This document shows positions 2,668 through 55,394 of a stretch of DNA of 64,000 nucleotides, piece by piece. The stretch is from a bacterium (GTDB taxonomy: Bacteria; Vulcanimicrobiota; Xenobia; Xenobiales; Xenobiaceae): assembly GCA_017458675.1 (NCBI GenBank), contig JAFTAM010000176.1:2282-66281 (forward strand), written 5' to 3'. Positions within the stretch are counted from its first letter, which is position 1, and each line of letters opens with the position of its first letter. The notes beneath the pieces are model-generated. The model had not been told where the DNA came from and ran no database searches. It worked only from the letters and a program-made list of their open reading frames with translations. A program made the position numbers and the translations under genes.

Positions 2668-3339
2668 CTGTCATCACTCCGCTTCTTATATCCGAATGCT
2701 TCCCGCCGGTTAGGCGCTCCTCCGATCCGCAGCGCGGTCCGTTTTGCATAACTTAATTTTTCCGCGCAGCGGCTGATATTCATTATGCAGAATTGTCAGC
2801 ATCATGGCCGATATAAAACTCTCTGCGCCGAAATCGGCGCCGCGCGTCAACTTTACGATAAATATTGAAAGATATACTCAGAGCCATTTTTTCGCAATCC
2901 TTTAAAAGTTCGGCAAATCTGCGCAAAACCTGTTAAAACCGATAATAAACTCCGCAGCCGGCCTCCCTGCCGCCCGCGTTCGGAAGCGATCCGTCCATGG
3001 GCGGAAGCGCAGGCCGGCCGAACCGTGCAAATCCGCCTTCCCGCCGCTCAGCGCCGCTTCGAACCGGGCCGAGCCTCAGACAATGGCGACTGCAGGCCGA
3101 CGACAGCCTTTATTTTTTGTATATTCAGCAAAACCTCAGAGCGGCTTGATATGTGAAATGCTCAGTTAAAGCGCATATATTTGCAGAATTATCAAACTCA
3201 TGTTCATAAAACGCTGCATTTCAAAAAAAAAAAAAATAAAATAGCAGAATAATGCCCATTATCAGCGGAAAATACTTGATTTTTCGGTATTTTAATGTAT
3301 ACTTATAAAGTCGTATTATTTTGTATCATAGATACTTCG

Positions 3340-3536
3340 CCGGCGGTGAAGCGACCGGCTCAGGATGACGCCAAACTTTGTCATTCTGAGCGGAAGGCGA
3401 AGAATCTATACCTTTTTACAATAAAGACCCTTCGACAAGCTCAGGGTGACATGAGAGACAGGCTCAGGGGCATAAAAAACCTTGGCCGGAGACATGTCTA
3501 AGCGCTCACACTTGTCATTGAGAGCGAAGAATCTAA
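3340..3536. repeat. Cluster of palindromic core units (GGCTCAGGATGACA / TGTCATTCTGAGCGNAGCGAAGAATCTAT) plus a 95-bp unit shared with 5190-5285
   Basis: Cores at 3379-3409 and 3513-3536. ACAATAAAGACCCTTCGACAAGCTCAGGGTGACATGAGAGACAGGCTC...GGCCGGAGACATGTCTAAGC recurs at 5196-5280. Confidence 0.8.
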
Positions 3537-3561
3537 ATTTTTAATATTCAGGAGGCAGGCA

Positions 3562-4950
3562 GTGCACACTAAAAAAAGCGCCAGAAAATTTGCTTTCATA
3601 TTTACTTTAGCCGTATCGCTCATTCTATTTTTAGGCGTCAACCTGACCGGCTGCGGAACCAGCGGTACGGTCGCTCCGGCCGTTTTGCCCACAGTTGAGC
3701 CTACGGTTGAGCCCACCGACGAACCTACGGTCGAACCCACCGAAGAACCTACTGACGAGCCCACGGTCGAACCCACCGAGGAACCGACCGACGAGCCCAC
3801 GGCCGAACCCACCGACGAGCCCACCGAGGAGCCCACGGCCGAACCCACCGACGAGCCCACCAGCGAACCCACCGACGAGCCCACGACCGAGCCTACGGCC
3901 GATCCCACCGACGAACCCACGGCCGATCCCACCGAAGAACCTTCCGCCGTTGAGGTATCCTTAAGCGCTTTCGAATACGATCAGCTCACCGGCGAAGTCA
4001 CTTTCAATTCCGATTCCACGCTGGCCAAGATGGGCTACACCGGCACGGCCGAGAAGGACGAAGACGAAAAGTGGGTGGCCCACATTTATCAGAGCGCGGC
4101 CGTGAGCGGCAAAACCGTCAGGGACGGCGAGGAAGCCGTAACCGATCTGGAAATCCCCGAAAACTTTGAGTACGACGGAACCGCCTACAGAATAACCTCA
4201 ATTGACGACGACGCTTTCTGCTTCTGCAAGGATTTAAAAACGGTCGCCATGCCCGCGAGCCTCACCGCCATCGGCGACAGATCTTTCTATCACTGCATGG
4301 CCTTAACCGCCATCGATATCCCCGAAGGCGTAACCTCTGTAGGCCAGGAGGCTTTTGAGGACTGCATCGCCGCCAAGTCGCTGACCCTTCCCTCTACTCT
4401 TACTTCCATAGGCCAGGCCGCTTTCAAGGCCTGCTACCTGATTCCCGCCGTAACCCTCCCCGAAGGCTTGACCGCCATCGAGCCCAGCACTTTCGAGACG
4501 TGCATAATGCTGGAAGAAGTTACGTTCCCCTCGACGGTCGCAATTATCGGCGAACGCGCCTTTTTCGGATGCAATCAGAAACTGGCCGCCGTTGATATTC
4601 CCAACGGCGTTGAAACTATCGGCGCCGAGGCTTTCCAAATGTGTTCGAAGCTGCAGATGGTCTCTATAGCCGGAACCGTAACTGAAATAGGCGAAAACGC
4701 CTTCATGTCAACCGGTTTAAAGATGCTCGTTCTTTCCGAAGGTATTGAGACTATAGGCGAGATGGCTTTCTACAACAACGACTTAACCGCCGTAGCCATT
4801 CCCTCTTCAGTCACCTCTATTGGCAAGAACGCATTGGCGATGAATTTTGATCTGGCGACAGTCACCTGGAAGGGGAACGAATATACCGACAACGCCGAAT
4901 TCAATCAAGCCCTCAAAGACGCCGGTATAGCCACCGACGACGTCTGGTAA
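3562..4950 (+). CDS. Surface lipoprotein with Pro/Thr-rich repeat linker and BspA-type leucine-rich repeats (LRR_5-like)
   Basis: GTG start 6 nt after GGAGG. Signal peptide with lipobox (NLTGCGTSG). The linker is (EPTD/EPTE/EPTA)n. There are repeated ~23-aa units of the form IPxGVTxIGxxAFxxCxxLxxVxxP, typical of BspA/TpLRR surface proteins. Confidence 0.7.
   Translation: MHTKKSARKFAFIFTLAVSLILFLGVNLTGCGTSGTVAPAVLPTVEPTVEPTDEPTVEPTEEPTDEPTVEPTEEPTDEPTAEPTDEPTEEPTAEPTDEPTSEPTDEPTTEPTADPTDEPTADPTEEPSAVEVSLSAFEYDQLTGEVTFNSDSTLAKMGYTGTAEKDEDEKWVAHIYQSAAVSGKTVRDGEEAVTDLEIPENFEYDGTAYRITSIDDDAFCFCKDLKTVAMPASLTAIGDRSFYHCMALTAIDIPEGVTSVGQEAFEDCIAAKSLTLPSTLTSIGQAAFKACYLIPAVTLPEGLTAIEPSTFETCIMLEEVTFPSTVAIIGERAFFGCNQKLAAVDIPNGVETIGAEAFQMCSKLQMVSIAGTVTEIGENAFMSTGLKMLVLSEGIETIGEMAFYNNDLTAVAIPSSVTSIGKNALAMNFDLATVTWKGNEYTDNAEFNQALKDAGIATDDVW
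3695..3930 (+). repeat. In-frame 12-nt period coding tandem repeat (EPT[DEA] units) inside the LRR lipoprotein gene
   Basis: About 20 consecutive gaNcccacNgaNgaNcc units read directly in the sequence. This explains the spurious antisense and alternate-frame ORFs 3498-3932(-) and 3695-3964(+). Confidence 0.8.
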
Positions 4951-5077
4951 TTATTGTCCGCCTTTTTTCATTACAGATCCTTCGCCGGAGGCTCAGGATG
5001 ACAGATATACCGGCTCAATATAACGCCAAACTTTGTCATTGAGAGCGAAGCGAAGAATCTATGCCTTTATAGACCAA

Positions 5078-5124
5078 CAGCCGCTTTTCTGCAGCTTCCA
5101 AGCTGCCGGGCGGCTGTTTTTTTT
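5078..5124 (+). terminator. Rho-independent terminator (first copy)
   Basis: CAGCCGC...GCAGCTTCCAAGCTGC...GCGGCTG followed by T8. About 130 nt after the 4950 stop. Confidence 0.7.
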
Positions 5125-5334
5125 GCCTCTTTCCGTGCAGCGAACAACGCCAAACCTTGTCATTCTGAGCGAAGCGAAGAATCTATACCTGTTTACAATA
5201 AAGACCCTTCGACAAGCTCAGGGTGACATGAGAGACAGGCTCCGGGTCATAAAATACTCTTGGCCGGAGACATGTCTAAGCACTAAGATTTGTCATTCTG
5301 AGCGAAGCGAAGAATCTATGCCTTTATAGACCAA

Positions 5335-5381
5335 CAGCCGCTTTTCTGCAGCTTCCAAGCTGCCGGACGGCTGTTTTTTTT
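5335..5381 (+). terminator. Rho-independent terminator (duplicated copy)
   Basis: Same hairpin with one substitution (GGGCGG to GGACGG), followed by T8. Confidence 0.65.
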
Positions 5382-5399
5382 GCCTCCCGCAGGCAAAAC

Positions 5400-5555
5400 A
5401 CGGACTTATCTTTGGCGCGAAAGCGGACGGACCGCCCCTAGGGTTGGGCTAGCCGCGCAGCCGAGCGCAAAAGAAAACCGGCGTAACGGAAACAAACCGA
5501 AATAATTGCCATTTAACTGACGATTGTCATACAGTTTTTGTGAGATATTCCCTTA
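5400..5555 (+). repeat. Partial/degenerate copy of the dispersed repeat (middle and 3' tail only)
   Basis: CGAGCGCAAAAGAAAACCGGCGTAACGGAAACAAACCG and AATAATTGCCATTTAACTGACGATTGTCATACAG parallel the ...GCGACAAAGAAAACCGGCATAACGAAAACA... and TTGCCTTAACTATATGACATTGG parts of copies A and C. It lies upstream of gene 5692. Confidence 0.5.
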
Positions 5556-5691
5556 ATTTTAGGGCGGCGGCCCCAATCCCAGGAAAGCTTTTGCCTATTT
5601 TTGCCGAAAACAGCACTTTCGGCCAAAAAATTTTACGATCTCACACTCCCCTGCGAAGAAAATTTTCAGCTATATGAAAGGAGAACGCTTA

Positions 5692-7152
5692 ATGAAGAAA
5701 ACAAAATCAGCCCGAAGGCTATGCAGCATTCTGTTTGCCTGGATGCTGACGCTGATTGCTGTATGCGCTTCAGCCTGCAGCCACAGCGGAGATATTTCCA
5801 CCCATCCTAGTTTGGATAAAGCTACCCTGAAGGTAACGATGGGGGAAGAAAAAGTTGAGGCCAGGAGCCTCGCTCCGGCAGACGCCGTCAAATACAGAAT
5901 TTATCTGTTTGACAAAGACGGCGCCCGCGTAGACGAGTTCAGTTTCGCAGCCGAAGGACAGACCAACAAGGAATTTAATTACGAATACACCGAAAACGGC
6001 GACAGCCGTGAAATGATTGTCAAGACCGGCGCTCTGACCGCCGAGTCCATGCGGGTCGCCTGCTATAACAGCGCCGGAAAATATATGGGCTCAGGCCTGG
6101 TCGGCGGCATGAAGCTGGAGGCTTACAAGTATTATTCCTTCGACAACACTTCCGAAAGAGACAACAGCTTTGATTATCTCTCCGCCGAAGACGAAGCTAT
6201 CGAGGGAGAGCTGTTCGTCACCGCCGAGCCTTCGGTAATAGCCGTGGGTGAAAAAGCCGAGCTCAAGGCCTTCTACACCAACCCCGACGGATTCACCGAA
6301 GACGTCACCGAGAATAACGCTCTCAAGCTGGAGACCGATTCGGAGAATATCGAATTGAACGGTCACCAAGTTACCGGCCTGGCCGACGGCGCGGCTATCG
6401 TCGCCGCCACTTTAACTTTAACCCCCAGCGTTCAGATGGCCTCCTCGGTAAACGTCACCGTCGGAGAGCGCGCGCCATCTTACAGCTTCCTGCGCAAGGT
6501 TGACGGCAAGTACACAGTAATCAATTCTCTGCTCTTGGACAGAAACGAGTCTCTGGAAGCTGAAATAGCTTACGGTTACATAGACGATAACGGCAATGCC
6601 GAGATCTTTGCCGGCAAATACGCCGCCAGAACCTATACGGGCGATGCTTCCAACGGTTTCCTGACAGTTTCCCCCGCCGACGTGAGTACTGAATCCTGCC
6701 TGGTAACGGCCGACCTCTCTAAAGAGCAGAACGGCGACTACGTCTACTTCGAGCCCGACGACTGTCCCGGCGTTATCTGCGCCAGCCTGCCGGTGGCCAT
6801 TGTCAACGGCGGAGGCAGCCGCGGCGCCGTAGAGCACTCATTCCTGGAGAAACTCGAAGACGGCAGCTATAAGCCCATCGACGCCCTTTTCTTCAGCCAG
6901 CAAGTCAAAACTAAAACCGTCGCTTACGGCGATATCGACGAAAACGGCGAGGTCAAGCTCTATAACGCCAAATTCGAGGCCAGAGATTGCTTCGAAGATC
7001 CCAACGGCTATATTACCGTAACTCCCTCGGGAAGCGAGACCAAGGAATGCACGGTGGTTATCGATACCGATAAACCCGCAAACTGCAATTACCTTTACTG
7101 CGAGCCCGATTATCCCCGCATAATCTGCGCCAGTCTGCCCGTTATCTACTAA
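5692..7152 (+). CDS. Lipoprotein with bacterial Ig-like (Big_2-type) domain and internal duplicated C-terminal modules
   Basis: AAAGGAGAA RBS before ATG 5692 (track start 5674 is 6 codons upstream). Signal/lipobox region LIAVCASAC. The central segment VTAEPSVIAVGEKAELKAFYT...VTGLADGAAIVAATLT resembles Big_2. There is a repeated motif YVYFEPDDCPGVICASLPV / YLYCEPDYPRIICASLPVIY. A terminator hairpin follows. Confidence 0.55.
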   Translation: MKKTKSARRLCSILFAWMLTLIAVCASACSHSGDISTHPSLDKATLKVTMGEEKVEARSLAPADAVKYRIYLFDKDGARVDEFSFAAEGQTNKEFNYEYTENGDSREMIVKTGALTAESMRVACYNSAGKYMGSGLVGGMKLEAYKYYSFDNTSERDNSFDYLSAEDEAIEGELFVTAEPSVIAVGEKAELKAFYTNPDGFTEDVTENNALKLETDSENIELNGHQVTGLADGAAIVAATLTLTPSVQMASSVNVTVGERAPSYSFLRKVDGKYTVINSLLLDRNESLEAEIAYGYIDDNGNAEIFAGKYAARTYTGDASNGFLTVSPADVSTESCLVTADLSKEQNGDYVYFEPDDCPGVICASLPVAIVNGGGSRGAVEHSFLEKLEDGSYKPIDALFFSQQVKTKTVAYGDIDENGEVKLYNAKFEARDCFEDPNGYITVTPSGSETKECTVVIDTDKPANCNYLYCEPDYPRIICASLPVIY

Positions 7153-7195: not shown

Positions 7196-7275
7196 AGCCG
7201 GGACGTTCAGTTTCAGCGAACGCCGGGCTTCAATCAATCATGCGGGCATTTCAGGCCCGGTTTTCAGGAGGAAAT

Positions 7276-8298
7276 ATGTCCAAAACCGCATCCGTTTATT
7301 ATGCAGCGGCTATGTCCTTAGCTTTGGCCGGAATGTGCTGCGCGCTGCCCGCGCAGGCCGACGGAGACGACGCGCCCCCGGCCGCGGCTCAGGAGACCCG
7401 GATCGAAGAGAACAACGAGAACGCAGAAGTTCAGGAAGAAAACGCCGAAAAGGAAGGCGAAGAAGCTGCGGCTCAGGCGCTGCCGGAAAATATTCAGATC
7501 GAATTCAAAAACGAAGGCGATTACGTAATTCAGCCCGACAGCATGGCCTACCACAATTTTACCACCTTCATTTACAACGATTTCGACTACTTCCTCAGGC
7601 GCGATCCCCGCATTGTCAAAGCCTGTCTGGGAACCGGCGACAATATCGATATGACCCAGAAGATGAACGAATACTTCGACAAAGAGGAAGAACTGACGGA
7701 AATCAGCGAAGTCATCTTCCAGCGCATCGTCGGCCTCGACAGAGGCTGGCCTGCCCGGATGCACTTCGAGGAGACCAGCGCTCAGCCCAATATCAGTCTT
7801 TTGGGCGTCAATCAGAACGTGCTCTATAAAATTGTCAATTTCTGGAGCGGCAGAGGCTTTGAAAATTACCGCGAAGAGTACATGCGCCCCTACCGCGAAG
7901 GCGAATTCCGCTTCACCGAAAAGTTCAGGGCCCAGGTCCGCGAGCGGAAAGGCAACGGCTTGAGAGGCTGGACCAAGAAAATGAGCCTGGCCGATCTGAG
8001 TATCTGCGCGGCTTCCACCCCTATCGCCATCTTTATGGATACTGACGAAAAGCGCATCCGCGAGCGCAACGCCTGGATGCCTACTCCGCTCGAAGACTTC
8101 ATGTACTACAGTTCCCGCCACAGCTTCCCCTACGTCGGCTTCCTCGATTACAGCCTGAAGTTCTTTGACGAAAACGGGAAAGAGCTCGATATCGCCGCCG
8201 GCGAGCGCATGCCGGCCAAAGGCGGAAAGATCATCTGCTCCTGGGACAAGCTTACCCTGTTTGAGCTCGACGATATCATTAAAGCCGACAGGAACTGA
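7276..8298 (+). CDS. Secreted hypothetical protein
   Basis: GGAGG RBS then ATG 7276 (MSKTASVYYAAAMSLALAGMCCALPAQA signal peptide). Acidic N-terminal region. No recognisable catalytic motifs. Terminator follows. Confidence 0.5.
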   Translation: MSKTASVYYAAAMSLALAGMCCALPAQADGDDAPPAAAQETRIEENNENAEVQEENAEKEGEEAAAQALPENIQIEFKNEGDYVIQPDSMAYHNFTTFIYNDFDYFLRRDPRIVKACLGTGDNIDMTQKMNEYFDKEEELTEISEVIFQRIVGLDRGWPARMHFEETSAQPNISLLGVNQNVLYKIVNFWSGRGFENYREEYMRPYREGEFRFTEKFRAQVRERKGNGLRGWTKKMSLADLSICAASTPIAIFMDTDEKRIRERNAWMPTPLEDFMYYSSRHSFPYVGFLDYSLKFFDENGKELDIAAGERMPAKGGKIICSWDKLTLFELDDIIKADRN

Positions 8299-8327
8299 CC
8301 TGCCGCATTCCGGCCTTTATAAGCTGA

Positions 8328-8366
8328 ACAGCCCCGCTGCCTGCCCGGCAGGGGGCTGTTTTATTT
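8328..8366 (+). terminator. Rho-independent terminator
   Basis: ACAGCCCCGCTGCC-loop-GGCAGGGGGCTGT then TTTTATTTG after the 8298 stop. Confidence 0.65.
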
Positions 8367-8411
8367 GTATCCCGATCCTCAGCAGTCTATGGACCGCCAA
8401 TATGAAAAGGA

Positions 8412-8530
8412 GAAAGATTCTTCGCTTCGCTCAGAATAACAGACGTTTACGTCCTTGGACAAGTTTATATCATACTAAACCGCATTTTATGTCATCCTTG
8501 AGCCGCGTTTTATGTCATCCTGAGCCGACA
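8412..8530. repeat. Core unit (8412-8443) plus two tandem GCATTTTATGTCATCCTGAGCCG units
   Basis: GAAAGATTCTTCGCTTCGCTCAGAATAACAG, then CGCATTTTATGTCATCCTTGAGCCG and CGTTTTATGTCATCCTGAGCCG. Confidence 0.75.
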
Positions 8531-8613
8531 GGCGAAGGATCTTTACCCCTCAGATTCTTTCCTCAGCAGGGTTCCTTAAAGCGTCAGCCGCCCGCGCGGC
8601 AAACGCCGTAAGC

Positions 8614-10248
8614 TCAGTCATTAGGAATAGGGGGAATGCTTCTTCTAACCGCAGACTGATTATCGGCGGCAGGCATCTCGGCGGTACGAAAAGCCGACCT
8701 GGGCTTCGGCGCCTCAGAAATCTCAGGCATATAATCAGCCTTGCCGTCAGCGCCCGACAATTTTGCGCTCCCTTCAGCCGCCGATCCGCCGTCGGTTTCC
8801 TTTAAGGGAAGCGAAAAATCGGGCTCAGGATGTACCGCCGCGCCTTCAGCTCCGCCCTCAGCCTCTGCGGCTTCCAAATCGGCCTTCGTGATTCTGCTTG
8901 TATCCGAAGCGGCGGCCTGAAGCTTATCATCCCGGCTTTCCGCCGCGGCCGAAATATCCGCCGAGGCGCCGCCTTTCTCCAAAACGGCACGCTCAGAAGC
9001 GCCTGCGCCGCCGTTTTCGTCAGAATCTCCGCACTCTTCGTCCTCGGCGGCCTCTTCACCGTCGGCGTATTCCCCGTCGTCGGCGTACTCTTCGTCGTCG
9101 GCGGCCTCTTCGTCCTCAGCGTGTTCTTCGTCCTCGGCGTACTCTTCGTCCTCGGCGTACTCCTCATCCTCGGCGTACTCTTCGTCCTCGGCGTACTCTT
9201 CGTCGTCGGCGGCCTCTTCGTCCTCAGCGTGTTCTTCGTCCTCGGCGTACTCTTCGTCCTCGGCGGCCTCTTCGTCCTCGGCGTACTCTTCGTCCTCGGC
9301 GTACTCTTCGTCCTCGGCGTATTCTTCGTCCTCGGCGGCCTCTTCGTCCTCGGAGGCCTCTTCGTCCTCGGCGTATTCTTCGTCCTCGGCGTACACTTCG
9401 TCCTCGGCGCACTCTTCGTCCTCGGCCTCTTCGTCGGCGGATGATTCTGGGGCGGCGTCCCTCTCATACCCTGGGAAAACAGGCTCGGGAGCGATACTGT
9501 GCGGCTCGCCATCCTCCGCTTCGCCTCTCTCGGCAGGCAAAACTGAAAGCGATTCCCGCAGCTCTCTTTCAACCGCAAGCGCCTCTTCGCTCAAAGTAAC
9601 CTGCTCCTGCAGATCGTTGACCTGATCGCGCAGAGACCAGATTTCCTCCTGATCGTCGGCATTTTTATCGGATAAAGCCTGACGCAGCGCCTCAAAATTG
9701 ACGCTGATTTCTTCCCAGCGTCCCCGCCAGTAGGCGGCCTCGTCCCTCTGACCGTCAAGCTCCTCGCGAAGCTCCTTAATTTCCGCCTGCAGCTCCTGAC
9801 AACGCTCCGTTAACTGACTGAGCCGCTCTTTATAAACGCCGTTTTCCGAAGAAAGAGCCGCAATTTTATCCGTCAGTCCGACAGAAATCTCCGCCGGAGG
9901 CAGCGCCGCATTTACAGGCTCGGGAGCGTTCAGCAGAGGTTCTGGACAGGGCTGCGCCTGGACCGCAGCTTCTGTCTCCGCAGAGCAGGACGCCTGAGCC
10001 TCACCGCCGGCAGGCAGAGGGCCGCTTAAAGCGGGCGTCTCCGCGCTGACTGAGCTTTCCCGGCGGCGGCGCTTGAGCATGAGCTTGGGAAGCTCGCTTT
10101 TATAAATTTCCCAATGCTTGCCGCGTCCGTCAATACAAATAATGCCCCGGATCTCTCCGGAATTTATGCGGCGGTAAATAGTAGGCAGGGAGACCCCCGT
10201 CAGTTCCACCGCCTCCTGAATAGATATGCGTTCACGCTCGCCGGCCAC
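8614..10248 (-). CDS. DNA-binding HTH (excisionase/MerR-like) protein with coiled-coil region and long polyacidic EDEEYA repeat tail
   Basis: GTG start with GAGGA RBS. The N-terminus ISIQEAVELTGVSLPTIYRRINSGEI is an HTH_17-like helix-turn-helix. A heptad-rich segment follows (LSQLTERCQELQAEIKELREELD...). Then about 20 copies of EDEE[YAH]A (Asp/Glu greater than 60 percent over ~130 aa). Confidence 0.65.
   Translation of the reverse strand: MAGERERISIQEAVELTGVSLPTIYRRINSGEIRGIICIDGRGKHWEIYKSELPKLMLKRRRRESSVSAETPALSGPLPAGGEAQASCSAETEAAVQAQPCPEPLLNAPEPVNAALPPAEISVGLTDKIAALSSENGVYKERLSQLTERCQELQAEIKELREELDGQRDEAAYWRGRWEEISVNFEALRQALSDKNADDQEEIWSLRDQVNDLQEQVTLSEEALAVERELRESLSVLPAERGEAEDGEPHSIAPEPVFPGYERDAAPESSADEEAEDEECAEDEVYAEDEEYAEDEEASEDEEAAEDEEYAEDEEYAEDEEYAEDEEAAEDEEYAEDEEHAEDEEAADDEEYAEDEEYAEDEEYAEDEEYAEDEEHAEDEEAADDEEYADDGEYADGEEAAEDEECGDSDENGGAGASERAVLEKGGASADISAAAESRDDKLQAAASDTSRITKADLEAAEAEGGAEGAAVHPEPDFSLPLKETDGGSAAEGSAKLSGADGKADYMPEISEAPKPRSAFRTAEMPAADNQSAVRRSIPPIPND
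9040..9420. repeat. 18-nt period tandem repeat (coding, minus-strand EDEEYA units)
   Basis: Direct reading shows ggcgtactcttcgtcctc-like units repeated about 20 times. This generates the Arg-rich and Val/Leu-rich artefact ORFs 8802-9578, 8830-9444, 8898-9599 and 9224-9412. Confidence 0.85.
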
Positions 10249-15393: not shown

Positions 15394-15494
15394 GCGGACG
15401 GTTCAAGCAGCCGTTACAGGCCTCTTGCCTGATGTTCCGGCTTTCTATTGCAATTACGCCGCCAGTTTGTCATGTTAAGTTAAGAATCTTAAAA

Positions 15495-15625
15495 ACAAAG
15501 ATCCTTCGCCTCACGGCTCAGGATGACAAAACGTCTGCCTTTGAAAACTCCGCTCGCCATTACGTCGCCGCTTTGTCATTCTGAACTTCCTGTCATTCTG
15601 AGCGCAGCGAAGAATCTATGTTCTT
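15495..15625. repeat. Core-unit cluster (GGCTCAGGATGACA; TGTCATTCTGAAC; TGTCATTCTGAGCGCAGCGAAGAATCTATG)
   Basis: Read directly at 15519-15535 and 15577-15620. Lies just after the oadB terminator. Confidence 0.8.
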
Positions 15626-16457: not shown

Positions 16458-16487
16458 TGCAGCTCTCTCCCTTACGCCATAGCCTAG

Positions 16488-16678
16488 CCGATATCATAAA
16501 GTTAAGGCAAAATATTGCTAACAAAGGTACATTAGCTTGTTTTACCAATGTTTGTAAATGTTTCTCCTGTCATTCTGAGCGCAGCGAAGAATCTATCAAT
16601 TACGTTCTGCGTGTTTTCGTAATGCCGGTTTTTATTAAGCATGGATGCTTAACTTCGCTTTTGCTTAGCTTACCGACA
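16488..16678 (-). repeat. Dispersed intergenic repeat, copy E (shorter, internal deletion)
   Basis: Reverse complement of CTGTCGGTAAGCTAAGCAAAAGCGAAGTTAAGCATCC...GATAGATTCTTCGCTGCGCTCAGAATGACAGG...TTGCCTTAACTTTATGATATCGG. Ends 30 nt upstream of the minus-strand start of 15702-16457. Confidence 0.8.
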
Positions 16679-24074: not shown

Positions 24075-24225
24075 TTTTACATCAAAGATCCTTCTCACGA
24101 AGGCTCATTGACCGGCTCAAGATGACAAACACTCTGTCATTCTGAGCGGCAGCGAAGAATCTATATCTTTTACATCAAAGATCTTTCGCCGGACGCTCAT
24201 TGACCGGCTCAGGATGACATCGGCC
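24075..24225. repeat. Tandem pair of ~60-bp units each ending in GGCTCA[AG]GATGACA, with one full core (24135-24167)
   Basis: TACATCAAAGATCCTTCTCACGAAGGCTCATTGACCGGCTCAAGATGACA...TGTCATTCTGAGCGGCAGCGAAGAATCTAT...TACATCAAAGATCTTTCGCCGGACGCTCATTGACCGGCTCAGGATGACA. Confidence 0.8.
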
Positions 24226-26724: not shown

Positions 26725-26778
26725 TTTTGTGTCATGCGGAGCCGATTTTTTACCGTTTTACAGGCGCCGATCCAATAT

Positions 26779-27032
26779 CGGTAAGTTAAGCAAAAACAGG
26801 CTTTAAGCAGACATTCCTAATAAAGGTTTTCTTTGACGCGTACGCGGAGATTCGAGCGTAAGCGAGCGCGGAGCGGTAGCGACAAAGAAAACCGGCATAA
26901 CGAAAACAAGTTAAACATGCTTGAAAGATTCTTCGCTGCGCTCAGAATGACAGAAGAAACATTTACAAGCCTAATGCAGAGATACTCTTGTACCATTTTT
27001 AGCAAGTTATTGCCTTAACTATATGACATTGG
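26779..27032 (+). repeat. Dispersed intergenic repeat, copy A (full length ~250 bp)
   Basis: CGGTAAGTTAAGCAAAAACAGGCTTTAAGCA...core TTGAAAGATTCTTCGCTGCGCTCAGAATGACAG (26923-26953)...3' tail TTGCCTTAACTATATGACATTGG, ending 33 nt before the ATG of 27065. Confidence 0.85.
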
Positions 27033-27748: not shown

Positions 27749-27792
27749 TGAGCCTGATGTTTGTCAGCTCCTTCGCTGCGCTCATAAAGACA

Positions 27793-27855
27793 AAAAAAAG
27801 CGGCGCGCTGCTTTCCTCAAAAAAAACAGTACGCGCCGCCTCCCGTTTTCCCCGG
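27793..27855. terminator. Possible bidirectional terminator between convergent genes
   Basis: GCGGCGCGC (27800-27808) pairs perfectly with GCGCGCCGC (27832-27840), flanked by an A8 run and a T-rich stretch. The loop is long (23 nt), hence low confidence. Confidence 0.35.
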
Positions 27856-32524: not shown

Positions 32525-32781
32525 ATTTTTATATCTCCAAAAGAGCGTGATTCTTTTCTTTGTATAACGGGAAAAGCCTTCTGCCTGCCGCTCTGAGCGA
32601 AGCGGCAAGTCTTCACAGTATAAGCGTGAAAGGCGCTTAGCCGGAAGCTCAGGACGGCATAAAGCGATCATGCCGAGCGAAGCGAAAAACAGCGCCGCTC
32701 CTGCGCTCCGGCTCCTGCTCTGACGGCTCGGAACCGCAGACTTCGCCCGGAACAGAGGCTTCTTCTCCCGAGCTTTCTCAT

Positions 32782-37344: not shown

Positions 37345-38994
37345 ATGCAGCCTTGCAGCCGCAATTATATAAACTGCCGTTTTTACGGCAATCAGGCTCC
37401 TTCAGCTCCTGAGCAGGCCCTGCGTCGGCTCAATAAGCCCGTATTCGCGGTCCTAAGCCGGGACGGAAGCTCCGCTGAGTTTTACAGCGGCGGCAGAATA
37501 GACTGCGAAGGCGCGGAAAGCGCTTCTGCGGAAGGACGCCCTCTTCTGGCGTTCGTTCCGCCTCTGAGAGCCGAGGATTGGGGAAACGCCGCTTTAAAAC
37601 GGGAATGCGGCATAAAATACGCCTGCCTGAGCGGTTCCATGGCCAACGGCATCGCCTCAGAGGCCTTAGTGGTCAATATGGCCAAAGCCGGCATGATGGG
37701 CTTTTTCGGCTCGGCCGGTTTAGGTCTCAGACAGGTGGAGGATCATATCGACTCCTTGAAAAAGCGTCTGCCCAGTCAGCCCTTCGGCTGCAATCTGATT
37801 TACAATCCCCACAATCAGCCGCTGGAGGCTCAGACCGCCGAACTTTTTATCAGAAAGGACGTCGCTTTTATCGAAGCCTCGGCTTATCTGACCCTCAATC
37901 CTTCGATTCTGCATTACCGCTACAGCGGCGTAAAGGAGCTGCCCGACGGCTCTCTGCATATTCCTCATAAAGTATTTGCAAAGGTTTCGCGCCCGGAAGT
38001 CGCCGCCAAGTTTCTGAGCCCGCCTCCTCCGGAAATGCTGCGCAAGCTGGTTGAGGAGGGAAAACTGACCTCTTCGGAAGCGGCTCTGGCTTCACGCATA
38101 CCTCCCGCCTATGCCTTGACCGCCGAGGCCGACTCGGGCGGCCATACCGACAACCGTCCGGCTCTGGCTCTGATCCCCGCGGTTATCAGTCTGCGCGACA
38201 GCCTGTGCCGAAAATACGGCTGGCATGTTTACGTTGGCGCCGCCGGAGGCGTATCTACTCCCGAATCGGCGGCGGCGATGTTCGCCATGGGCGCCGATTA
38301 CGTCATGACCGGCACGATAAACCAGGCCTGCCAGGAATCGGGCAGCAGCTCCGTAGTGCGGGAAATGCTCTCCAAGGCCACCGGCGCCGACGTCATGATG
38401 GCCCCGGCCGCCGATATGTTTGAAATGGGAGTAAACGTACAGGTGCTCAAATGGGGAACGATGTTCCCGATTCGGGCCCGCCGCCTCTATGAAATTTACC
38501 GCGCCTACGCCAGCTATGACGAGGTTCCCGACAGCATAAAGACCCAGATAGAGCGCGACATGCTGCGTCAGAGCTTCGATCGGGCCTGGGAAAGCACCAA
38601 GGCCTTCTTCCGGGAGCGCGATCCCCAGCAGATAGCCAAAGCCGACGGCAATCCAAAATATAAAATGGCCCTGGTCTTCCGTTCCTATCTCGGACAGGCC
38701 TCGCGCTGGGCCAACGCCGGAATACCCGACCGCAAGACCGACTATCAGATCTGGTGCGGCCCCTCCATCGGAAGTTTTAACCAATGGTGCAAAGGAACAT
38801 TCTTAGAAGACGTGAAGGAACGTCACGCCGATTTGGCCGCGCTCAATATTTTAGCCGGCGCCTGCGTAATTACCAGGGCCAATCTGCTGCGCAGCCAAGG
38901 CATAGAGCTTCCCGGCAGGCTCTGCAGCTTCAGTCCTCTGCCTTATAACGAGTTAGCGTCATTATTACAGGAGTCAGTCAGTGTCCGTCAATAA
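37345..38994 (+). CDS. pfaD: PfaD-family enoyl reductase (trans-acting ER of PUFA/secondary-lipid synthases)
   Basis: AAAGGAATAAAAT then ATG. Segment GSMANGIASEALVVNMAKAGMMGFFGSAGL is the nitronate-monooxygenase-like FMN TIM barrel characteristic of PfaD. 549 aa. Confidence 0.8.
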   Translation: MQPCSRNYINCRFYGNQAPSAPEQALRRLNKPVFAVLSRDGSSAEFYSGGRIDCEGAESASAEGRPLLAFVPPLRAEDWGNAALKRECGIKYACLSGSMANGIASEALVVNMAKAGMMGFFGSAGLGLRQVEDHIDSLKKRLPSQPFGCNLIYNPHNQPLEAQTAELFIRKDVAFIEASAYLTLNPSILHYRYSGVKELPDGSLHIPHKVFAKVSRPEVAAKFLSPPPPEMLRKLVEEGKLTSSEAALASRIPPAYALTAEADSGGHTDNRPALALIPAVISLRDSLCRKYGWHVYVGAAGGVSTPESAAAMFAMGADYVMTGTINQACQESGSSSVVREMLSKATGADVMMAPAADMFEMGVNVQVLKWGTMFPIRARRLYEIYRAYASYDEVPDSIKTQIERDMLRQSFDRAWESTKAFFRERDPQQIAKADGNPKYKMALVFRSYLGQASRWANAGIPDRKTDYQIWCGPSIGSFNQWCKGTFLEDVKERHADLAALNILAGACVITRANLLRSQGIELPGRLCSFSPLPYNELASLLQESVSVRQ

Positions 38995-41900
38995 GTCTGT
39001 CAAAACTAAAGATCAGCCCGAAAATATGCCCATAGCCATAATAGGTATGGGCTGTCTCTTCCCCAAAGCCGGAGACCGCCAAAGCTTCTGGCGGATTCTG
39101 CGCACAGGCGCCGACTGTATCGGTCCCGTGCCGGAGACCCACTGGTCGGTAAACGATCTTTACGACGGCGACCACTCCAGTCCCGACCGCTGCTACGCCA
39201 AAATGGGCGGCTTCCTCGAGCCTTATCCCTTCGATCCTACCGAATTCAATATTCCTCCCAACGTGTTGGAAGCCACCGACACCTCTCAGCTTCTGGGCCT
39301 GGTCGGCGCTAAAGCCGCCCTTGAAGACGCAGGCTACGGCCAGGAGGGCAAGGAGCTTCCCAAGGATCGCACCAGCGTTATTTTAGGCGTCACCGGCGCT
39401 TTGGAAATGGTCATTCCTCTGGGCGCACGCCTGGGCCATCCCCGCTGGCGCAAGGCCCTGGCTCAGGCCGGAATAGACAAAGAGACCTCCGAAAAGATCA
39501 TTGCCGATATCGCCGATTCATACGTATCCTGGCAGGAAAATTCTTTCCCCGGACTTTTGGGCAACGTGGTGGCCGGACGCATTGCCAACCGCCTCGATCT
39601 CCACGGCACCAACTGCGCCGTGGACGCCGCCTGCGCCAGCTCTTTAGCAGCCGTGCATCTGGCGGTTTCCGAACTGCAGGCGGGACAGGCCGACGTCTGC
39701 CTCACCGGCGGAACCGACACCTTCAACGATATTTTCATGTTTACTTGCTTCAGCAAGACTCCCGCCCTTTCCGACAGCGGACGCATCTCCCCCTTCTCGG
39801 AAAGCTGCGACGGCACTCTGCTGGGCGAGGGAATCGGCGTTCTGGTCTTAAAGCGTCTGGCCGACGCCGAGCGCGACAATGACAGAATCTATGCGGTTAT
39901 TAAAGGCATGGGAACCTCCTCCGACGGAAATTCCGGCGCCATTTACGCGCCCAGCGCGCCCGGCCAGGCTATGGCTCTGCGCCGCGCTTATGAGGAAAGC
40001 GCCGTCGATCCCAAAACCGTAGAGGTCGTCGAAGCTCACGGCACCGGCACTAAGGTCGGCGACGCCGTCGAATTCAAGGCGCTTAAGGAAGTTTATCTGG
40101 AAGCCGGAGCCGCTCCGCAGTCCTGCGCCCTGGGCACCGTCAAGTCGCAGATAGGCCATACCAAGGCCTCCGCCGGAGCCGCCAGCCTCTGCAAAGCGGC
40201 CTTCTCTCTCTTCCATAAGGTCATTCTGCCCACTCTGAATGTCAGCAGGCCCAACCCCAAGCTGGAAATAGAGGACAGTCCCTTCTACTTAAACACATCC
40301 GTCCGCCCCTGGATCTCCAATCCTCATCATCCCCGCCGCATCGGCGTATCCTCCTTCGGATTCGGCGGAGCGAATTACCATGCGGTTTTGGAGGAGCACA
40401 AGCCCGAGCGCCTCGCTCCCGCCTGGGACGGTTCCGTGCAGATCTGGCCCTTCTCCGCCGCCGACAAACAGAGTCTGATCGCTTCCGTGCGAAGCGCCGC
40501 CGCCTGCAAGCCCTATGAAAGCGCCTATCAGGCCTGCCTGCAGAGAGAGACTTTCGATCATAAAGCTCCCTGCCGCGCCGTCATTGTAACCGGTCCGGCC
40601 GATTACGCCGAAAAACTGGCCGCTCTGGCCGACGCTCTGGAAAACGGCAAGGAGCAGAGCAATGCGCTGCCCGAAGACGCCTATTACGGCGACGTCTCCT
40701 CCGAATTGGGCAAGGTGGCCTTCCTCTTCCCCGGTCAGGGCAGCCAATATGTGCGCATGGGCTCAGAGCTCTTCAGCGTCTTCCCCGAAGCTCTGCAGGT
40801 TCTGGAATGCGCCCAGCAGACCCTTAAGGGCAGCGGTCAGGCCCCGGCGGAATACATCTTCCCCAAGCCCCGCTTCACCGAAAATGAAGAGGAAGAAAAT
40901 ACCAAAGCCTTAACCGATACCAAGATTACTCAGCCCTCCCTGGGAGCCATGGAAAGCGCTATGGCCGCCGTACTGGAACGCTTTGAGGTCGTGCCTCAGG
41001 CTATGGCCGGCCACTCTTTCGGAGAACTGGTAGCTCTGCAGAGAGCTCAGGTTTATTCTCAGAAGGATCTCTTCTCGCTTTCCGCTCTGCGCGGCGCTTT
41101 AATGGCCGCAGGCGACGGAGGCAGAGGGGCCATGGCCGCAGTATCCGCTCCGTTGGCGGATATTGAAGCCATTGTCGCCGAAGTCGGCGGCGATCTGGTG
41201 CTGGCTAACCGCAATCACCCGACGCAGGGAGTTATTTCCGGCACAAAGGAAGCTCTGGCCAAAGCCGAAGAGCTCTGCAAGGCCAAAAAGATGACCGCCA
41301 AGCGCCTGCAGGTTTCGGCCGCCTTCCACAGCTCGCTCATGCGGAGCGCCCGCGATCCCTTCTTCAGCGCTCTGGAGCAGACGGAATTCAAAACGCCAGT
41401 TCTTCCGGTTTACGCCAATATGACCGGCAAGCTTTACGGAAGCGAAGCTGAAAAGAACCGGCAGACCCTGGCCGATCAGCTGGTAAGCTCCGTGCGCTTC
41501 ATCGACATTGTTGAGGATATGTATGCCGAAGGCTTCCGCACCTTCATCGAAGTCGGCCCCAAAACCGTTCTTACCGGCCTGGTCAAAAAGATTTTGGGGA
41601 AAAATCCCTGCAATCTGCTCTCAACCGACGGCCGCAAAGGCGGAGACGAACTGAAGAATATCGCTCTGACCCTGGCCCGGCTGGCCGCTTTAGGATACGC
41701 CGTCAAGCTGGCGGCCTGGGAAGAAAAGGTCGCCAAGCCCCGTCATAAGCGCATGGAAGTTCCCATCTGCGGCGCCAATTACCGCACGCCCGGCAAAAAA
41801 GCGCCCGCTCCCTGGAGCGATCCCCATGAACCTGCCGAAAACTATCAGCCCATAAAGTTCGTCAGCGACAATCCCCCGGTGATGCCGGCTCCCACTCCTA

Positions 41901-44900
41901 TAGAAAAGCTTGAAATAGTCGAACTTAACTCTCAAAATCAAGCGGCGGCTCCCGCCGAGCCTGCGGCAATCCGCAGTTCAGCGTCCAATTCCGCCGCTTA
42001 CAGTCCCGTCAAGGATAGTCCCGTGTCAAATACCGTTTTTAATTCCCAGCCTGCCGCCGCCGTCTCCCCTGCTGCGCCGATTCCCTCCGCCGGCAGTTCT
42101 TCCGTTCTGCTTGAGGCCTTCAAAACTATCCAGAGCGGCCTCAGCGCCATGCAGGTCCTGCAGGAGCAGACCGCGTCAGCCCACATGCGATTTCTGGAAA
42201 GCCAGGAGCAGATTCAGCGTTCGCTGCAGAGCATCATTTCCGCCCAGCAGGGCTTGGCCCAAGTCAGCCTGAAGCCTCAGGCTCTGCAGACGCTCCACGT
42301 CATGCCGGCCCTGCATATCCCGGCTCCCGCCGCCTTCAGCCAGCCGACCGCCGCCGTTCAGCCCGCCGCCCCGAAGATCGCCGCGCAGCCACAGCCGGAA
42401 ACGCTCTCTTTCTCTCCCATGGCAGGCTATTCAGCCAACGAACCGCTGCCTGTGCCGATATCTTCCCCTAAAAACGAAAGCAGAGATTCCGGGAACCAAA
42501 ACCTGCAGCTTCCCAAAGCCCCTCAGGAAAAGCCTCAGACCGACGCCGCCGTAGCCGTTCTTTCCGTAGTTTCGGAAATGACCGGCTATCCCGCCGATAT
42601 GCTGCGCCTGGATATGAATTTAGAAACAGACTTAGGCATTGATTCCATTAAGAGAGTGGAAATTCTCTCCGCCATTCAGCGCAGTCTGCCCCAGGCAAAA
42701 ACCATAGCTCCCGACGAAATCGGCTCGCTGCAGACCCTGCAGCAGATTATAGAGCGCTTAGGCGTCTCCTCAGCCGCCCCGCAGCCGAAAACGGCTCCCG
42801 CAGTTCCGGCAGTTCCTGCTTCTCCCGAGCCGAAAGCCGAACCCGCCGCCCGGCCTCAAGGCTCCGCCGAGAAGATCGTCATGAAGGTTGTGACCGAAAC
42901 TACGGGTTATCCTGAAGAAGCCGTCAATCTGGATATGGACCTGGAAAACGATTTAGGCGTCGATTCCATTAAGCGCGTGGAAATTTTAGCCGCCATCCAG
43001 AAGGCGCTGCCCGACGCAGCCCAGATCGCTCCCGACGAGCTCAGCTCTCTGCACACGCTGCGCCAGATATTGAATAAGCTGCAGCCCGAGAGCAAGGCTT
43101 CCCCGTTATCCGCGTCCGAAAGCAAAGAGACGGTTTCCCGTCCCTCCGCGCCCGAACAGAACCTGCAGTCAGGCTCCGTCGCCGAAACCATAATTTCAGT
43201 CATAGCCGAAATGACCGGCTATCCGGTTGAAACCTTAAATCCGGATCTGGATTTAGAAAACGATTTGGGCATTGACTCCATTAAGCGCGTGGAAATTTTA
43301 GCCGCCATTCAGAAAGCGCTGCCCAACGTCAAGGATATTGCTCCCAGCGAGCTCACCGATCTCCATACCATTAAGGATATCATCGCCCGCCTGAGCAGCG
43401 ATCCTCACGATCCTCAGGGTGGACCTTCTCCTTCCGATCCCGATAAGGATAAAAAAAAAGATCATAATTCAGGAATAGACAGAAAAAACAGCGGTCCGGA
43501 CCCGCATTCAGCCGCAGCCCTGGGGGGGGCTTTGTTCGGCTCCGAGCCGCCTTTGCTGCGCCGCCGCCTCCGTTATCTGCCTTCCCCCAGGCCCTCACAG
43601 TCCGCAGAAACTGCGAACCAGGGGCTTTATTTGATTTTAGGGGACAAAAATCTGGGACGCGCTCTCAAAAACGCCCTGACGCTTTCCGGAAAGCAGGCTG
43701 AATTCATTCCCGTCCAAAAAGTATCCGACCTCATGCTGCCGCAGAAATTTTCGGTTATAGCGGTAATGGAGCATACTGATATTAAACAGGAAGAAGACGT
43801 CTATAAAACTTTCAGGCAGTCCCAAAGGAGCTTAAAGGAGCTCTTCCGCAGCGTGCGAGCTGTTTGCCAGGCCTGCAATAAAAAGAAAATCCACCCCCAG
43901 AGCTTTACTACCGTAACTTGTCTCGACGGCGCCTTCGGAACAGAAAGGCCGGATTTCCAGCCGATTGAGGCCGGTCTGCACGGCCTGGCCAGAGTAATGG
44001 CCAACGAATATCCTCAGACCGTCTGCCGCGCCTTTGACGTCGATTCTCAGCTTCAAACTGCGGAAGCAGCCGCTCTCATTGCCGAAGAACTGAAGGTAAA
44101 GGGAAGCAATGAAGTAGGTTTAAGCGCCCAAACCAGACGCATAGCCGTTCTGCAGGAAGACAGGCTCAATTTAGAGCAGCCCAACCCCTCTCTGCCGGCC
44201 CGTCCCGTAATCATAGTCACCGGCGGAGCGCGCGGAGTTACCGCAGACTGCGCAAAGACGCTGGCAAAAGCCTGCCGGCCCCGCTTTATCCTGATCGGAC
44301 GCTCTCCCGTCCCCCGGAAAGAAGCGGCGGAAACCGCGCAGGCCTCGACCCCGCAGGCTTTGAAATCTCTGCTCTATACTCAAGCCAAAGCCAGGGGGCT
44401 CAGCCTCACTCCCAAAGACCTTGAAGCTACATGCCGGCAGATTCTGGCCAACCGCGAAGCGCTGCAGAATATCGCCGAACTGGAAGCGGCAGGCTCCGAG
44501 GCGCTGTATATATCTGCAGACGTTCAGGATTTTTCCCAGGTTAAAGAAGCTGTGAATCTGGCCAAAAAGCGCTTCGAACGCATCGACGGCGTAATCCACG
44601 GCGCAGGAGTGCTGGCCGACCGCTATATCGCCGACAAAACCGACGAGCAGTTCAACCGGGTTTTTGATACTAAAATCTGCGGACTTTACAACCTCTGCCA
44701 GGCTCTGAAGGACGAACCTCTTAAGTTCGTACTGACTTTCTCTTCGGTTTCGGCCCGCTTCGGACGTCCCGGCCAGTGCGATTACGCCATGGCCAACGAG
44801 GTCATGAACAAATTTACGCACTTCGCCTCCTTCCGCCATCCTCAGACCCGCTATACGGCCATGGGCTGGGGTCCCTGGGAAGGCGGCATGGTCGACGCCG

Positions 44901-55372: not shown

Positions 55373-55394
55373 TAAATAGCTTTTGAACGTACAA

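Follow-up and report, generated by a model that had tools for sequence, protein, structure and literature searches.

What kind of element crowds the intergenic DNA on both sides of a surface lipoprotein gene of the leucine-rich repeat (LRR) type, and how did it come to carry a complete terminator with it? The question is raised by positions 3340–5390 of a 64-kb stretch of contig JAFTAM010000176.1 (hereafter the window) from a bacterium of the family Xenobiaceae, in which a first-pass annotation had noted a high density of a short palindromic core. We found that the basic unit of this repeat is a single arm of ~25 nt (range, 25–40 nt) that forms its own stem-loop, and not the pair of arms. The arms probably make up a family of the repetitive extragenic palindromic (REP) class, a non-autonomous selfish element that would be active as a single-stranded DNA hairpin.

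The recurrence of the core TGTCATTCTGAGCGNAGCGAAGAATCTAT (29 nt) reported by the first-pass annotation was real: seven matches with at most three mismatches were found in the window, versus 0.00 expected from 100 shuffles. The half-motifs GTCATYCTGAGC and GCGAAGRATCT matched 20 times (0.5 expected) and 22 times (4.0 expected), respectively, and a repeat search of positions 3200–5600 placed five members in a family centered on the core. R1, a single-arm covariance model built from 138 distinct arms, identified 17 strong arms (E ≤ 0.05) and five weaker arms adjoining strong ones, whereas two isolated weak matches inside genes were taken as chance. All 22 arms were intergenic, although intergenic DNA makes up 12.4% of the window (P ~4e-16 for the 17 strong arms). 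Their density was ~1 per 3 kb, with no arms anywhere between 28 and 55 kb. Every core position listed earlier (3379, 3513, 5030, 5161, 5291, 8412, 15590, 16569, 24135, 26923, 55691, ~57085, and 57990, with a degenerate copy at 27765) was recovered, except that positions 32590–32700 were too degenerate to score (one local match, E = 1.4). The inverted partner of the core, GGCTCAGGATGACA, was likewise present, at 3326–3369, 4971–5007, 8509–8546, 15495–15532, 24082–24127, and 24175–24219.

Each arm consists of an unpaired 5' tag, (T)GTC, a 5-bp stem, ATYCT/AGRAT, a tandem G·A/A·G (5'-TGAG/CGAA-3'), an apex, and an unpaired C(TC) tail. Pairing runs through A4–T24, T5–A23, Y6–R22, C7–G21, and T8–A20, followed by G9·A19 and A10·G18, and then by G11–C17 and C12–G16 around a GNA loop; the apex is a G–C clamp closing a GNA or GNNA loop, which yields GCGNAGC or GCGNNAGC. 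The minimum free energy structure of a single arm calculated with ViennaRNA was the proposed hairpin. The 5'-TGAG/CGAA-3' step is a context for tandem sheared G·A pairs, as in d(ATGAGCGAAT)2. GCGNAGC and GCGNNAGC are mini-hairpin DNA sequences of extraordinary stability that standard thermodynamic models leave unexplained, the melting temperature being 76.5 °C for d(GCGAAGC) versus 39 °C for r(GCGAAAGC) (PMC13037366).

The hairpin within the arm is conserved through compensatory change. Among the 138 distinct arms, 98.7% of cells were paired and six of the seven pairs showed double-sided changes; 84 cells covaried versus 25.6 in shuffles, a level that none of 500 shuffles reached, and controls with slid partners gave at most 5. 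Positions 8–10 and 18–20 were fixed by the search pattern, and the pairs counted were free, or free within purine or pyrimidine. At positions 6/22, the 151 pattern-selected arms had C–G (79), T–A (67), C–A (4), or T–G (1), and unselected arms added the stem variants ATG/CAT, ACC/GGT, and GTC/GAC. The first two stem pairs were A–U in 129 and U–A in 131 of the 138 arms. The apical segment varied from 7 to 40 nt and was self-complementary in every length class (1.8–2.7 pairs versus 0.5–0.6 in shuffles); the 7-nt class comprised GCGNAGC or the compensated ACGNAGT, the 8-nt class was mostly GCGNNAGC, and some longer apices added a second GA/AG layer. In 200 arms, the base before GTC (itself fixed by the search pattern) was T in 159, C in 24, G in 11, and A in 6, and the tail had C, T, and C in 198, 156, and 102 arms, respectively. 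All strong arms in the window read TGTC/TGTT or CTGTC at the tag.

We also compared the arms with their neighbors. In 43 of 101 inverted neighboring pairs, pairing within each arm was kept while the two arms differed from each other, and one pair showed the reverse. The first-pass annotation had proposed that paired units form a stem of ~13 bp. Strong hairpins of the pairs were indeed predicted, with two arm pairs folding at −41.4 and −30.9 kcal/mol as RNA and at −22.5 and −11.9 kcal/mol as DNA (z = −4.3 and −7.7 for the range of −31 to −41 kcal/mol as RNA), but the arm-to-arm stem is secondary; each arm is itself the conserved hairpin. An argument for arm-to-arm pairing from strand-specific G·U pairs was dropped, as a mixed dimer shows one G·T and one A·C whichever strand is read.

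Arms nevertheless occurred together in a regular manner. In the collected loci, 101 of 117 neighboring arm pairs were inverted; the tags were outermost in 78 dimers (median spacer, 29 nt), and faced inward in 23, and a further 16 pairs were in the same orientation. Dimer spacers ranged from 8 to 142 nt, with interiors unrelated between copies. The tag and 5' half-stem (TGTCATYCTGAGC) were iterated 18–24 nt upstream of full arms, on the tag side, in 19 of 143 cases and downstream in none. This iteration was found in several phyla (e.g., loci L046, L067, L088, L100, and L108) and in the window at 15575–15586, ~8490–8505, and 5011–5024. Being short, extragenic, hairpin-forming, and arranged in inverted dimers and mosaic clusters, the copies agree with the class originally assigned to them, a REP-like short palindromic element.

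Arm clusters flank a gene for a BspA-type LRR lipoprotein (3562–4950, plus strand), with an LTGC lipobox and a PT linker (Pfam LRR_5, 1.5e-57; PT, 1.7e-24). The upstream cluster (3326–3538), in the order 3326(−), 3375(+), 3421(−), 3509(+), lies between a promoter-like site (TTGATT-16-TATACT, 3276–3303) and the ribosome-binding site (RBS) of this gene and is probably part of a 5' untranslated region (UTR). Its first arm, at 3326–3369 on the minus strand (R1 E = 0.45, supported by a pattern match), has a long apical insertion (GTCATCCTGAGCC-GGTCGCTTCACCGCC-GGCGAAGTATC) and is the left partner of the first dimer, the one folding at −41.4 kcal/mol as RNA. The arm at 3375–3411 (plus strand; 39.8 bits, E = 4e-8) has a TGTC tag, an ATTCT/AGAAT stem, GA/AG, and the apex GCGGAAGGC. 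It is followed by an arm with the compensated variant ACCCT/AGGGT at 3421–3455 (minus strand; 27.6 bits, E = 6e-5), by a companion spacer at 3456–3508 that includes the palindrome AGACATGTCT and forms direct repeats with 5233–5286, and by a truncated arm just upstream of the RBS (3509–3538, plus strand; E = 0.44), which overlaps promoter-like hexamers at 3512–3539.

The downstream clusters, in the order 4971(−), 5030(+), 5154(+), 5198(−), 5287(+), lie between the stop codon of the LRR gene and a gene at 5692–7152. The arm at 4971–5007 (minus strand; 36.8 bits, E = 2.5e-7) has the apex GCC-TCC-GGC, and an iterated 5' half-arm (GGCTCAATATAAC), recognized by its sequence, stands on its tag side at 5011–5024 (minus strand). 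Next come an arm with a TTGAGAG variant at 5030–5064 (plus strand; E = 3.5e-4) and an intrinsic-terminator-like hairpin followed by T8 at 5078–5124 (plus strand), identified by repeat search. The arm at 5154–5188 (plus strand; 49.6 bits, E = 1e-10) opens a second copy of the upstream module, which continues with an ACCCT/AGGGT arm copying 3421–3455 (5198–5232, minus strand; 27.6 bits) and a second companion spacer (5233–5286) detected as a direct repeat. An arm at 5287–5321 (plus strand; 48.2 bits) and a second terminator-like hairpin with T8 at 5335–5381 (plus strand; repeat search) complete the series.

Several further features of this locus were observed. A run of A14 (3225–3238), which precedes the promoter-like hexamers of this gene by ~40 nt, is a possible slipped-strand (phase-variable) tract or UP-like element. 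The tag region of the arms reads TTGTCA, a −35-like hexamer (3378–3405 and 3512–3539), and the truncated arm at 3509–3538 gives TTGTCA-16-TAAATT ~10 nt before the RBS, so that arms might supply promoter elements. Within the LRR gene, a repeat with a 12-nt period (3643–3966) encodes the PT-rich (EPTD/EPTA) linker. The 5' part of a histidine kinase gene occupies 1–2667 on the minus strand. Just to the left of the window, positions 1–1071 of a scaffold from another assembly (L123) encode a paralogous BspA-type LRR protein (36% identical) with a TD-repeat linker instead of PT, and seven alternating arms with a 73-nt period follow the terminator of that gene (L123 1138–1392).

The arrangement around the LRR gene is a mosaic. 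The gene is bracketed by direct copies of a module at 3375–3538 and 5154–5321 (~150–165 nt; 91% identical over ~146 nt aligned) with the order arm(+), spacer, arm(−) of the ACC/GGT type, companion, arm(+). The first-pass annotation had identified a 95-bp companion unit common to both sites, which corresponds to 3397–3480 and 5174–5257 at 95% identity; its extent was underestimated, as the segment continues at 84% identity (3474–3529 versus 5252–5307) and the module is really ~150–165 nt long. Similarly, the reported duplication of a segment with its terminator was confirmed as a 98-nt unit (5032–5129 and 5289–5386; 97% identical and 257 nt apart), each copy with a terminator-like hairpin and T8, but this is not a plain tandem repeat, since the intervening 159 nt duplicate the cluster that precedes the gene. 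The arms at 3380, 5034, and 5159 have a common 10–12-nt 5' flank, ACGCCAAACYT, which indicates that they arose from one another by local copying and not by independent insertion.

The duplication at 4975–5390 must be distinguished from an assembly artefact, in which the second arm-plus-terminator copy and the inserted module would result from a repeat-induced loop in the assembly graph. Scaffold L123, otherwise 99.9+% identical to the window, lacks exactly 257 nt and runs directly from the arm of copy 1 to the terminator of copy 2, with a copy-1-type arm, a copy-2-type single-nucleotide polymorphism (SNP) in the terminator, and the crossover in a 69-nt identical stretch. Furthermore, the junction of the copy-1 terminator to 5130–5162 was seen only in the window assembly, and contigs of independent assemblies break inside these arms. 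However, contig L124, assembled from a different sample with k = 141, contains the copy-specific segment 5163–5288 at 100% identity to the window and at only 91% to the upstream module, and there the segment is joined to copy 2, including its arm at 5287–5321, and to the downstream gene. In addition, the two copies differ by three SNPs, positions 5130–5145 following copy 1 occur nowhere else in the window, and the join in L123 lies inside the 69-nt identical stretch, exactly where a short-k assembler would collapse the repeat. An artefact limited to this duplication is therefore possible but doubtful, and the 257-nt difference of L123 could reflect recombinational deletion, an unduplicated ancestor, or short-k assembly collapse alike.

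Elsewhere in the window, a dimer with an iterated half-arm at ~8490 lies between convergent genes (8411–8546; arms at 8411–8445, minus strand, and 8509–8546, plus strand). A cluster at 15464–15621, downstream of the oxaloacetate decarboxylase (OAD) beta gene, contains a degenerate arm (15464–15493), an arm on the minus strand (15495–15532), a half-arm (15575), and an arm on the plus strand (15587–15621), so that the full arms read 15495(−), 15587(+). Three alternating arms occupy 24082–24219 upstream of a DUF4127 gene (24082–24127, minus; 24131–24166, plus; 24175–24219, minus), and a degenerate single arm was found at 27762–27796 on the minus strand (R1 E = 0.015).

Five of the copies listed by the first-pass annotation (one third: 16569, 26923, 55691, 57085, and 57990) ride inside a separate repeat family of ~255 nt, termed type B, which carries one arm at a fixed position. 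Full copies were found at 26778–27032 (minus strand; arm at 26922–26956) and 56928–57179 (minus strand; arm at 57070–57104), an internally deleted copy at 16485–16676 (plus strand; arm at 16564–16598), a partial copy at 55531–55727 (minus strand; arm at 55689–55723), a copy without the 5' part at 57990–58166 (plus strand; arm at 57990–58018), and a fragment at 5454–5495 (minus strand). In a relative (L126), a type B copy at 1012–1260 stands where the window has the LRR gene cassette. The ends of type B are loosely inverted (CAATGTC..AGTTAAGGCAA / TTGCTTAACTTACCGACATTG), its long internal hairpin (GGTTTTCTTTG..CAAAGAAAACC) shows a few compensatory changes, and no clear target-site duplication was seen around the copies. 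Type B could be a miniature inverted-repeat transposable element (MITE) or a small RNA gene. Two type B repeats lie in a 1.9-kb AT-rich stretch (55373–57292) that has no open reading frame (ORF) above ~70 aa and follows a gene for a Gly/Pro-rich repetitive protein (54593–55372).

To determine the distribution of the arm, we searched 596 Gb of sequence, comprising one genome for each GTDB species, for the exact pattern GTCATYCTGAGCGNAGCGAAGRATC. The exact 25-mer was found in at least 120 genome stretches from ~17 phyla, versus ~0.02 chance matches expected by our own arithmetic, and in at least 120 IMG/VR viral contigs. The record titles included Acidobacteriota, Chloroflexota, Nitrospirota, Nitrospinota, Bacteroidota, Ignavibacteria, Gemmatimonadota, Bacillota, Planctomycetota, Verrucomicrobiota, Omnitrophota, Saccharibacteria, Gracilibacteria, Alphaproteobacteria, Desulfovibrio, Bdellovibrionales, Fibrobacter, and Abditibacteriaceae. 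The few matches on plasmids came from cyanobacteria (an additional group), Phocaeicola, and Granulicella, none of them annotated. In a metagenome-assembled genome of Fibrobacter (L069), the 25-mer lay inside an apparent signal-peptide coding region, downstream of the ATG. Acidobacterial copies were often preceded by a common CAGGCTGCGGAAAAAC motif, and other hairpin repeats of similar style (..CATTCCGGCGAAAGCCGGAATCC.. and the CGTC-1-like GTCACCCCCGCGAAAGCGGGGG) co-occurred in other phyla (L040, L085, L022, etc.).

At close range, the distribution was patchy. Four syntenic loci of relatives, with the same order of biotin ligase and OAD genes and an OAD-beta gene 86% identical, contained no arms in 83 kb, and the closer relative L126 had one arm in 4.9 kb. 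In L126, which shows 77% nucleotide identity in the flanking genes, the LRR gene and both arm clusters were absent. The convergent spacer at 8299–8613 was compared with L126 4005–4390 as an orthologous empty site, but it is not a clean one, as L126 has other sequence and a small ORF there. A metagenome scan for close relatives of the gene at 7240–8298 found none. The contig breaks at arms and the seven-arm array outside the window are consistent with a high copy number.

How such a repeat would spread and persist can be considered from these data. The arm may be copied or moved in trans by an enzyme encoded elsewhere and not beside the arm. With many copies in a genome, homologous recombination and slippage between arms would then build and reshuffle arrays, and these events could drag neighboring signals along, such as the terminator in the window, and bracket genes, such as that for the surface LRR lipoprotein. 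Transcribed dimers would give very stable hairpins in 5' and 3' UTRs, and these could plausibly affect mRNA stability as a by-product. Single arms between co-directional genes pointed with the genes in 15 cases and against them in 14, i.e., without bias toward the transcript strand. Together with the DNA-specific stability of the apex, this favors a single-stranded DNA hairpin as the active form, as in the biology of REP sequences with their REP-associated tyrosine transposases (RAYTs) and of IS200/IS605 elements.

Several observations weigh against a selfish element of this kind. The first-pass annotation regarded the element as active or recently active and as seeding local rearrangement. 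This agrees indirectly with the arm-free 83 kb of syntenic relatives, with the state of L126, and with the L123 scaffold, 257 nt shorter with its crossover in the repeat, but no transposition event, empty site, or mobilizing enzyme was found. No gene recurred as a neighbor in the 120 genome loci listed, where all-against-all clustering of ORFs gave only housekeeping families, and when 240 loci were pooled with the viral contigs included, phage structural genes were the sole recurrent neighbors. Phmmer searches with 13 RAYT/TIRYT queries gave no match among 15,758 ORFs in ~2 Mb around arms, a weak test given that such a gene would be single-copy per genome, and a Pfam scan of ~30 window ORFs revealed housekeeping or polyketide synthase genes and no transposase. 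The calculated energy of a single arm was only −1.9 (DNA) or −4.6 (RNA) kcal/mol, no better than shuffles, so that its special stability rests on published measurements of GCGNAGC and of tandem G·A pairs. Symmetric covariation could in principle also be compatible with a dimeric protein on double-stranded DNA. Finally, a selfish element would not by itself readily explain why the arm is nearly identical across phyla, which may indicate a conserved host partner. The cross-phylum sample was drawn with an exact pattern and understates variation.

We therefore weighed other explanations for the same features. If the arm or dimer were a structured RNA element, it would be selected in transcripts for 3'-end protection, termination, translation control, or as a small RNA, and a conserved RNA-binding partner would account for the spread across phyla. 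The strong folding of dimers as RNA, the probable 5' UTR position of the cluster at 3326–3538, and the location of the downstream clusters between the LRR stop codon and the terminators would suit such a role, and the covariation is equally compatible with RNA. Convergent intergenic contexts exceeded divergent ones (47 versus 29), and in one recurrent phage group arms stood 8–160 nt downstream of capsid-region genes (read by eye as the major capsid and portal region, without confirmation by family search), in the same orientation in 14 cases and the opposite in 9, which also speaks against the selfish-element interpretation. However, the single arms between co-directional genes lacked orientation bias, arms also occurred in divergent promoter regions, and relatives with the same genes had no arms. 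The stability of the apices GCGNAGC and GCGNNAGC is far greater in DNA than in RNA (PMC13037366). When the window was searched against Rfam 15 at the gathering score, no match was obtained; 15 loci with canonical units yielded two tRNAs and nothing else, and the matches at E ≤ 10 in 3250–5450 were all at chance level. An RNA role thus appears unlikely. A reading of CUGA...GAA as a hammerhead or K-turn was rejected on inspection, as the arm lacks both the G8-A9 of a hammerhead core and the 3-nt bulge of a K-turn, and no Rfam family matched. Another explanation, which we consider quite unlikely, is that the 25-nt hairpin, with its TGTC tag, GA-zipper stem, and GCGNAGC mini-hairpin, serves almost universally as a single-stranded nucleic-acid module, recognized by conserved machinery of the host or phage instead of by a dedicated transposase. 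Candidates include a primase or an SSB-exclusion site, a nuclease of replication or repair, and a widely distributed HUH enzyme. Such a module would explain the persistence of the arm in ~17 phyla, bacteria of the candidate phyla radiation (CPR), and viral contigs, the iteration on the tag side only, and the fact that CGTC-type REPs have never been linked to a transposase; if it exists, it would amount to a "transposase-free" route of repeat spread and maintenance.

Two further explanations treat the arm as a double-stranded site. As an operator or nucleoid-protein site, ATYCT-N11-AGRAT would be bound by a dimeric protein, and its symmetric half-sites would underlie the covariation. The arm is indeed symmetric and palindromic and is confined to intergenic DNA, and classical REP and bacterial interspersed mosaic elements (BIMEs) bind gyrase, IHF, and Pol I. 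Nonetheless, at least five compensated stem variants (ATC/GAT, ATT/AAT, ATG/CAT, ACC/GGT, and GTC/GAC) and compensated apical pairs (G–C to A–T and C–G to T–A) are changes that a helix would tolerate and a base-reading protein would not. The apex, despite its length of 7–40 nt, always pairs with itself, a density of ~1 arm per 3 kb is too high for a regulon, and no single protein is common to CPR bacteria, Firmicutes, Acidobacteria, and phages; we consider this explanation very unlikely. The (+)(−) dimer could instead be a MITE, i.e., a deleted DDE transposon (Tn7/Tn402/Mu type) reduced to its two ends (TGT...ACA), with the half-arms as extra transposase-binding sites. The outer ends do read TGTCAT...ATGACA, the first 12 nt of the arm resemble what we take to be the Tn402 inverted repeat, TGTCATTTTCAG (a lead only), and half-arms iterated at 18–24 nt on the tag side only are like arrayed transposase sites. 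Nevertheless, direct repeats of 2–9 bp flanking 74 dimers, tested at offsets 0–3, were at chance level, with dimer flanks weakly palindromic, and the spacers of 8–142 nt have no conserved interior. Moreover, both dimer orientations and single arms occur, covariation within arms is kept at the cost of identity between them, and no transposase gene was found between or beside arms in the loci and window ORFs scanned. A MITE origin is hence hardly credible.

A REP-class element acting as a single-stranded DNA hairpin, our preferred interpretation, would account for most intergenic repeats in the window, the duplicated terminator, and the breaks in short-read assemblies here, and it marks the surface LRR lipoprotein gene as sitting in a recombination-prone cassette. 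The family stands out from routine cases because its unit is identical in ~17 phyla and in viral contigs, because this unit is constructed from two exceptional DNA motifs, and because half-arms are iterated on one side only; the defined 25-mer can be used to fish for a partner. The motif also creates spurious small ORFs in many annotations (peptides FFAALRMT, ILRCAQND, and VILSEAKNL), which a model of the R1 type could mask. Two other features of the window were recorded. Tandem repeats with an 18-nt period (9030–9436) lie inside an HTH_17 gene (8614–10248, minus strand), and contig L124 ends inside them. Two giant ORFs (2321 and 2442 aa; 38981–53380), following an FabD/NMO-type gene (37345–38994), look like a trans-AT polyketide synthase cluster.

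Finally, we compared the arm with known systems. Full-text literature searches by arm sequence and by peptides returned nothing relevant, and the RepRanger paper has no such motif. The arm apex is exactly that of the mini-hairpins GCGNAGC and GCGNNAGC (Hirao and co-workers; PMC13037366), with any base at N, but mini-hairpins are a structural motif whose known natural uses are the priming sites of phage G4 and ssiA and the hairpin promoters of phage N4, none of them a dispersed repeat. Like the GTAG-tagged REP sequences, REPINs, and BIMEs, the arms are short, imperfect extragenic palindromes in inverted doublets and alternating arrays without target-site duplication. A hairpin with an unpaired 5' tetranucleotide is the form recognized by Y1/HUH enzymes. 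Several RAYT-mobilized enterobacterial REPs have the same GCGNAGC apex (table in PMC2817692). Unlike them, the arms carry TGTC instead of GTAG, and the ORFs examined near arms included none resembling RAYT/TIRYT. Sequences of the REP and REPIN type are regarded as lineage-specific, at the species or genus level, and as tied to RAYTs with which they co-evolve, whereas the arm 25-mer is the same across phyla and in viral contigs without an attached enzyme.

In architecture, the locus resembles the Neisseria intergenic mosaic elements (NIMEs), which are intergenic arrays of 50–150-bp RS units bracketed by ~20-bp inverted dRS3 hairpin repeats, adjoin surface-protein genes, and are thought to promote recombination. 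Here, arms enclose a companion unit of ~95–150 nt both upstream and downstream of the LRR lipoprotein gene, and the paralogous gene is followed by the seven-arm array. The likeness ends there, as dRS3 is ATTCCC-N8-GGGAAT, no such perfect-stem GTCAT-type hairpin occurs in the window, and no link of the arms to DNA uptake or phage integration is known.

The closest counterpart is the superfamily of CGTC-tagged REPs (Di Nocera, De Gregorio and Rocco 2013, BMC Genomics 14:522; PMC3733652), which includes Neisseria dRS3 (= CGTC-1) and Rickettsia RPE-4 and RPE-6. As described there, these REPs have a CGTC tag that is often TGTC (or CCTC), a stem starting with A–T and T–A, and a short tail, and occur mainly as dimers, in five phyla, with no dedicated transposase; dRS3 repeats are clustered in mosaic regions (PMC3733652). 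The arms share the unpaired 4-nt tag (T before GTC in 159 of 200), the A–T/T–A start of the stem, the short unpaired tail, and the arrangement mostly in inverted dimers, sometimes in clusters and occasionally in genes, in several phyla and with no transposase attached. The four CGTC families are described there as having uninterrupted stems of 8–9 bp, loops of 4–5 nt, and a 3-nt CCA tail (PMC3733652). In the arm, by contrast, 5 bp are followed by G·A/A·G, 2 bp, and either a 3-nt GNA loop or a longer structured apex; the tail is CTC, and the translations VILSEAKNL, FFAALRMT, and DSSLRSE of the arm are not among the intragenic peptides listed in that source. The peptide RHSELVSGS listed for CGTC-2 (Additional file 3 of that source) is what CGTCATTCTGAG... 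would encode, with the same first 11–12 nt as the arm, and is a lead only. Compared with the five phyla given there, the arm family extends to ~17, including CPR groups, Bacillota, Acidobacteriota, and Chloroflexota, and to viral contigs. Judged by the available descriptions of stem, loop, and tail and by the peptides, which set it apart from CGTC-1 to CGTC-4, the arm apparently represents an undescribed family of the CGTC/TGTC-tagged REP class. Built from two unusually stable non-Watson–Crick DNA motifs, this family sharpens the question of what moves or maintains CGTC-tagged REPs.

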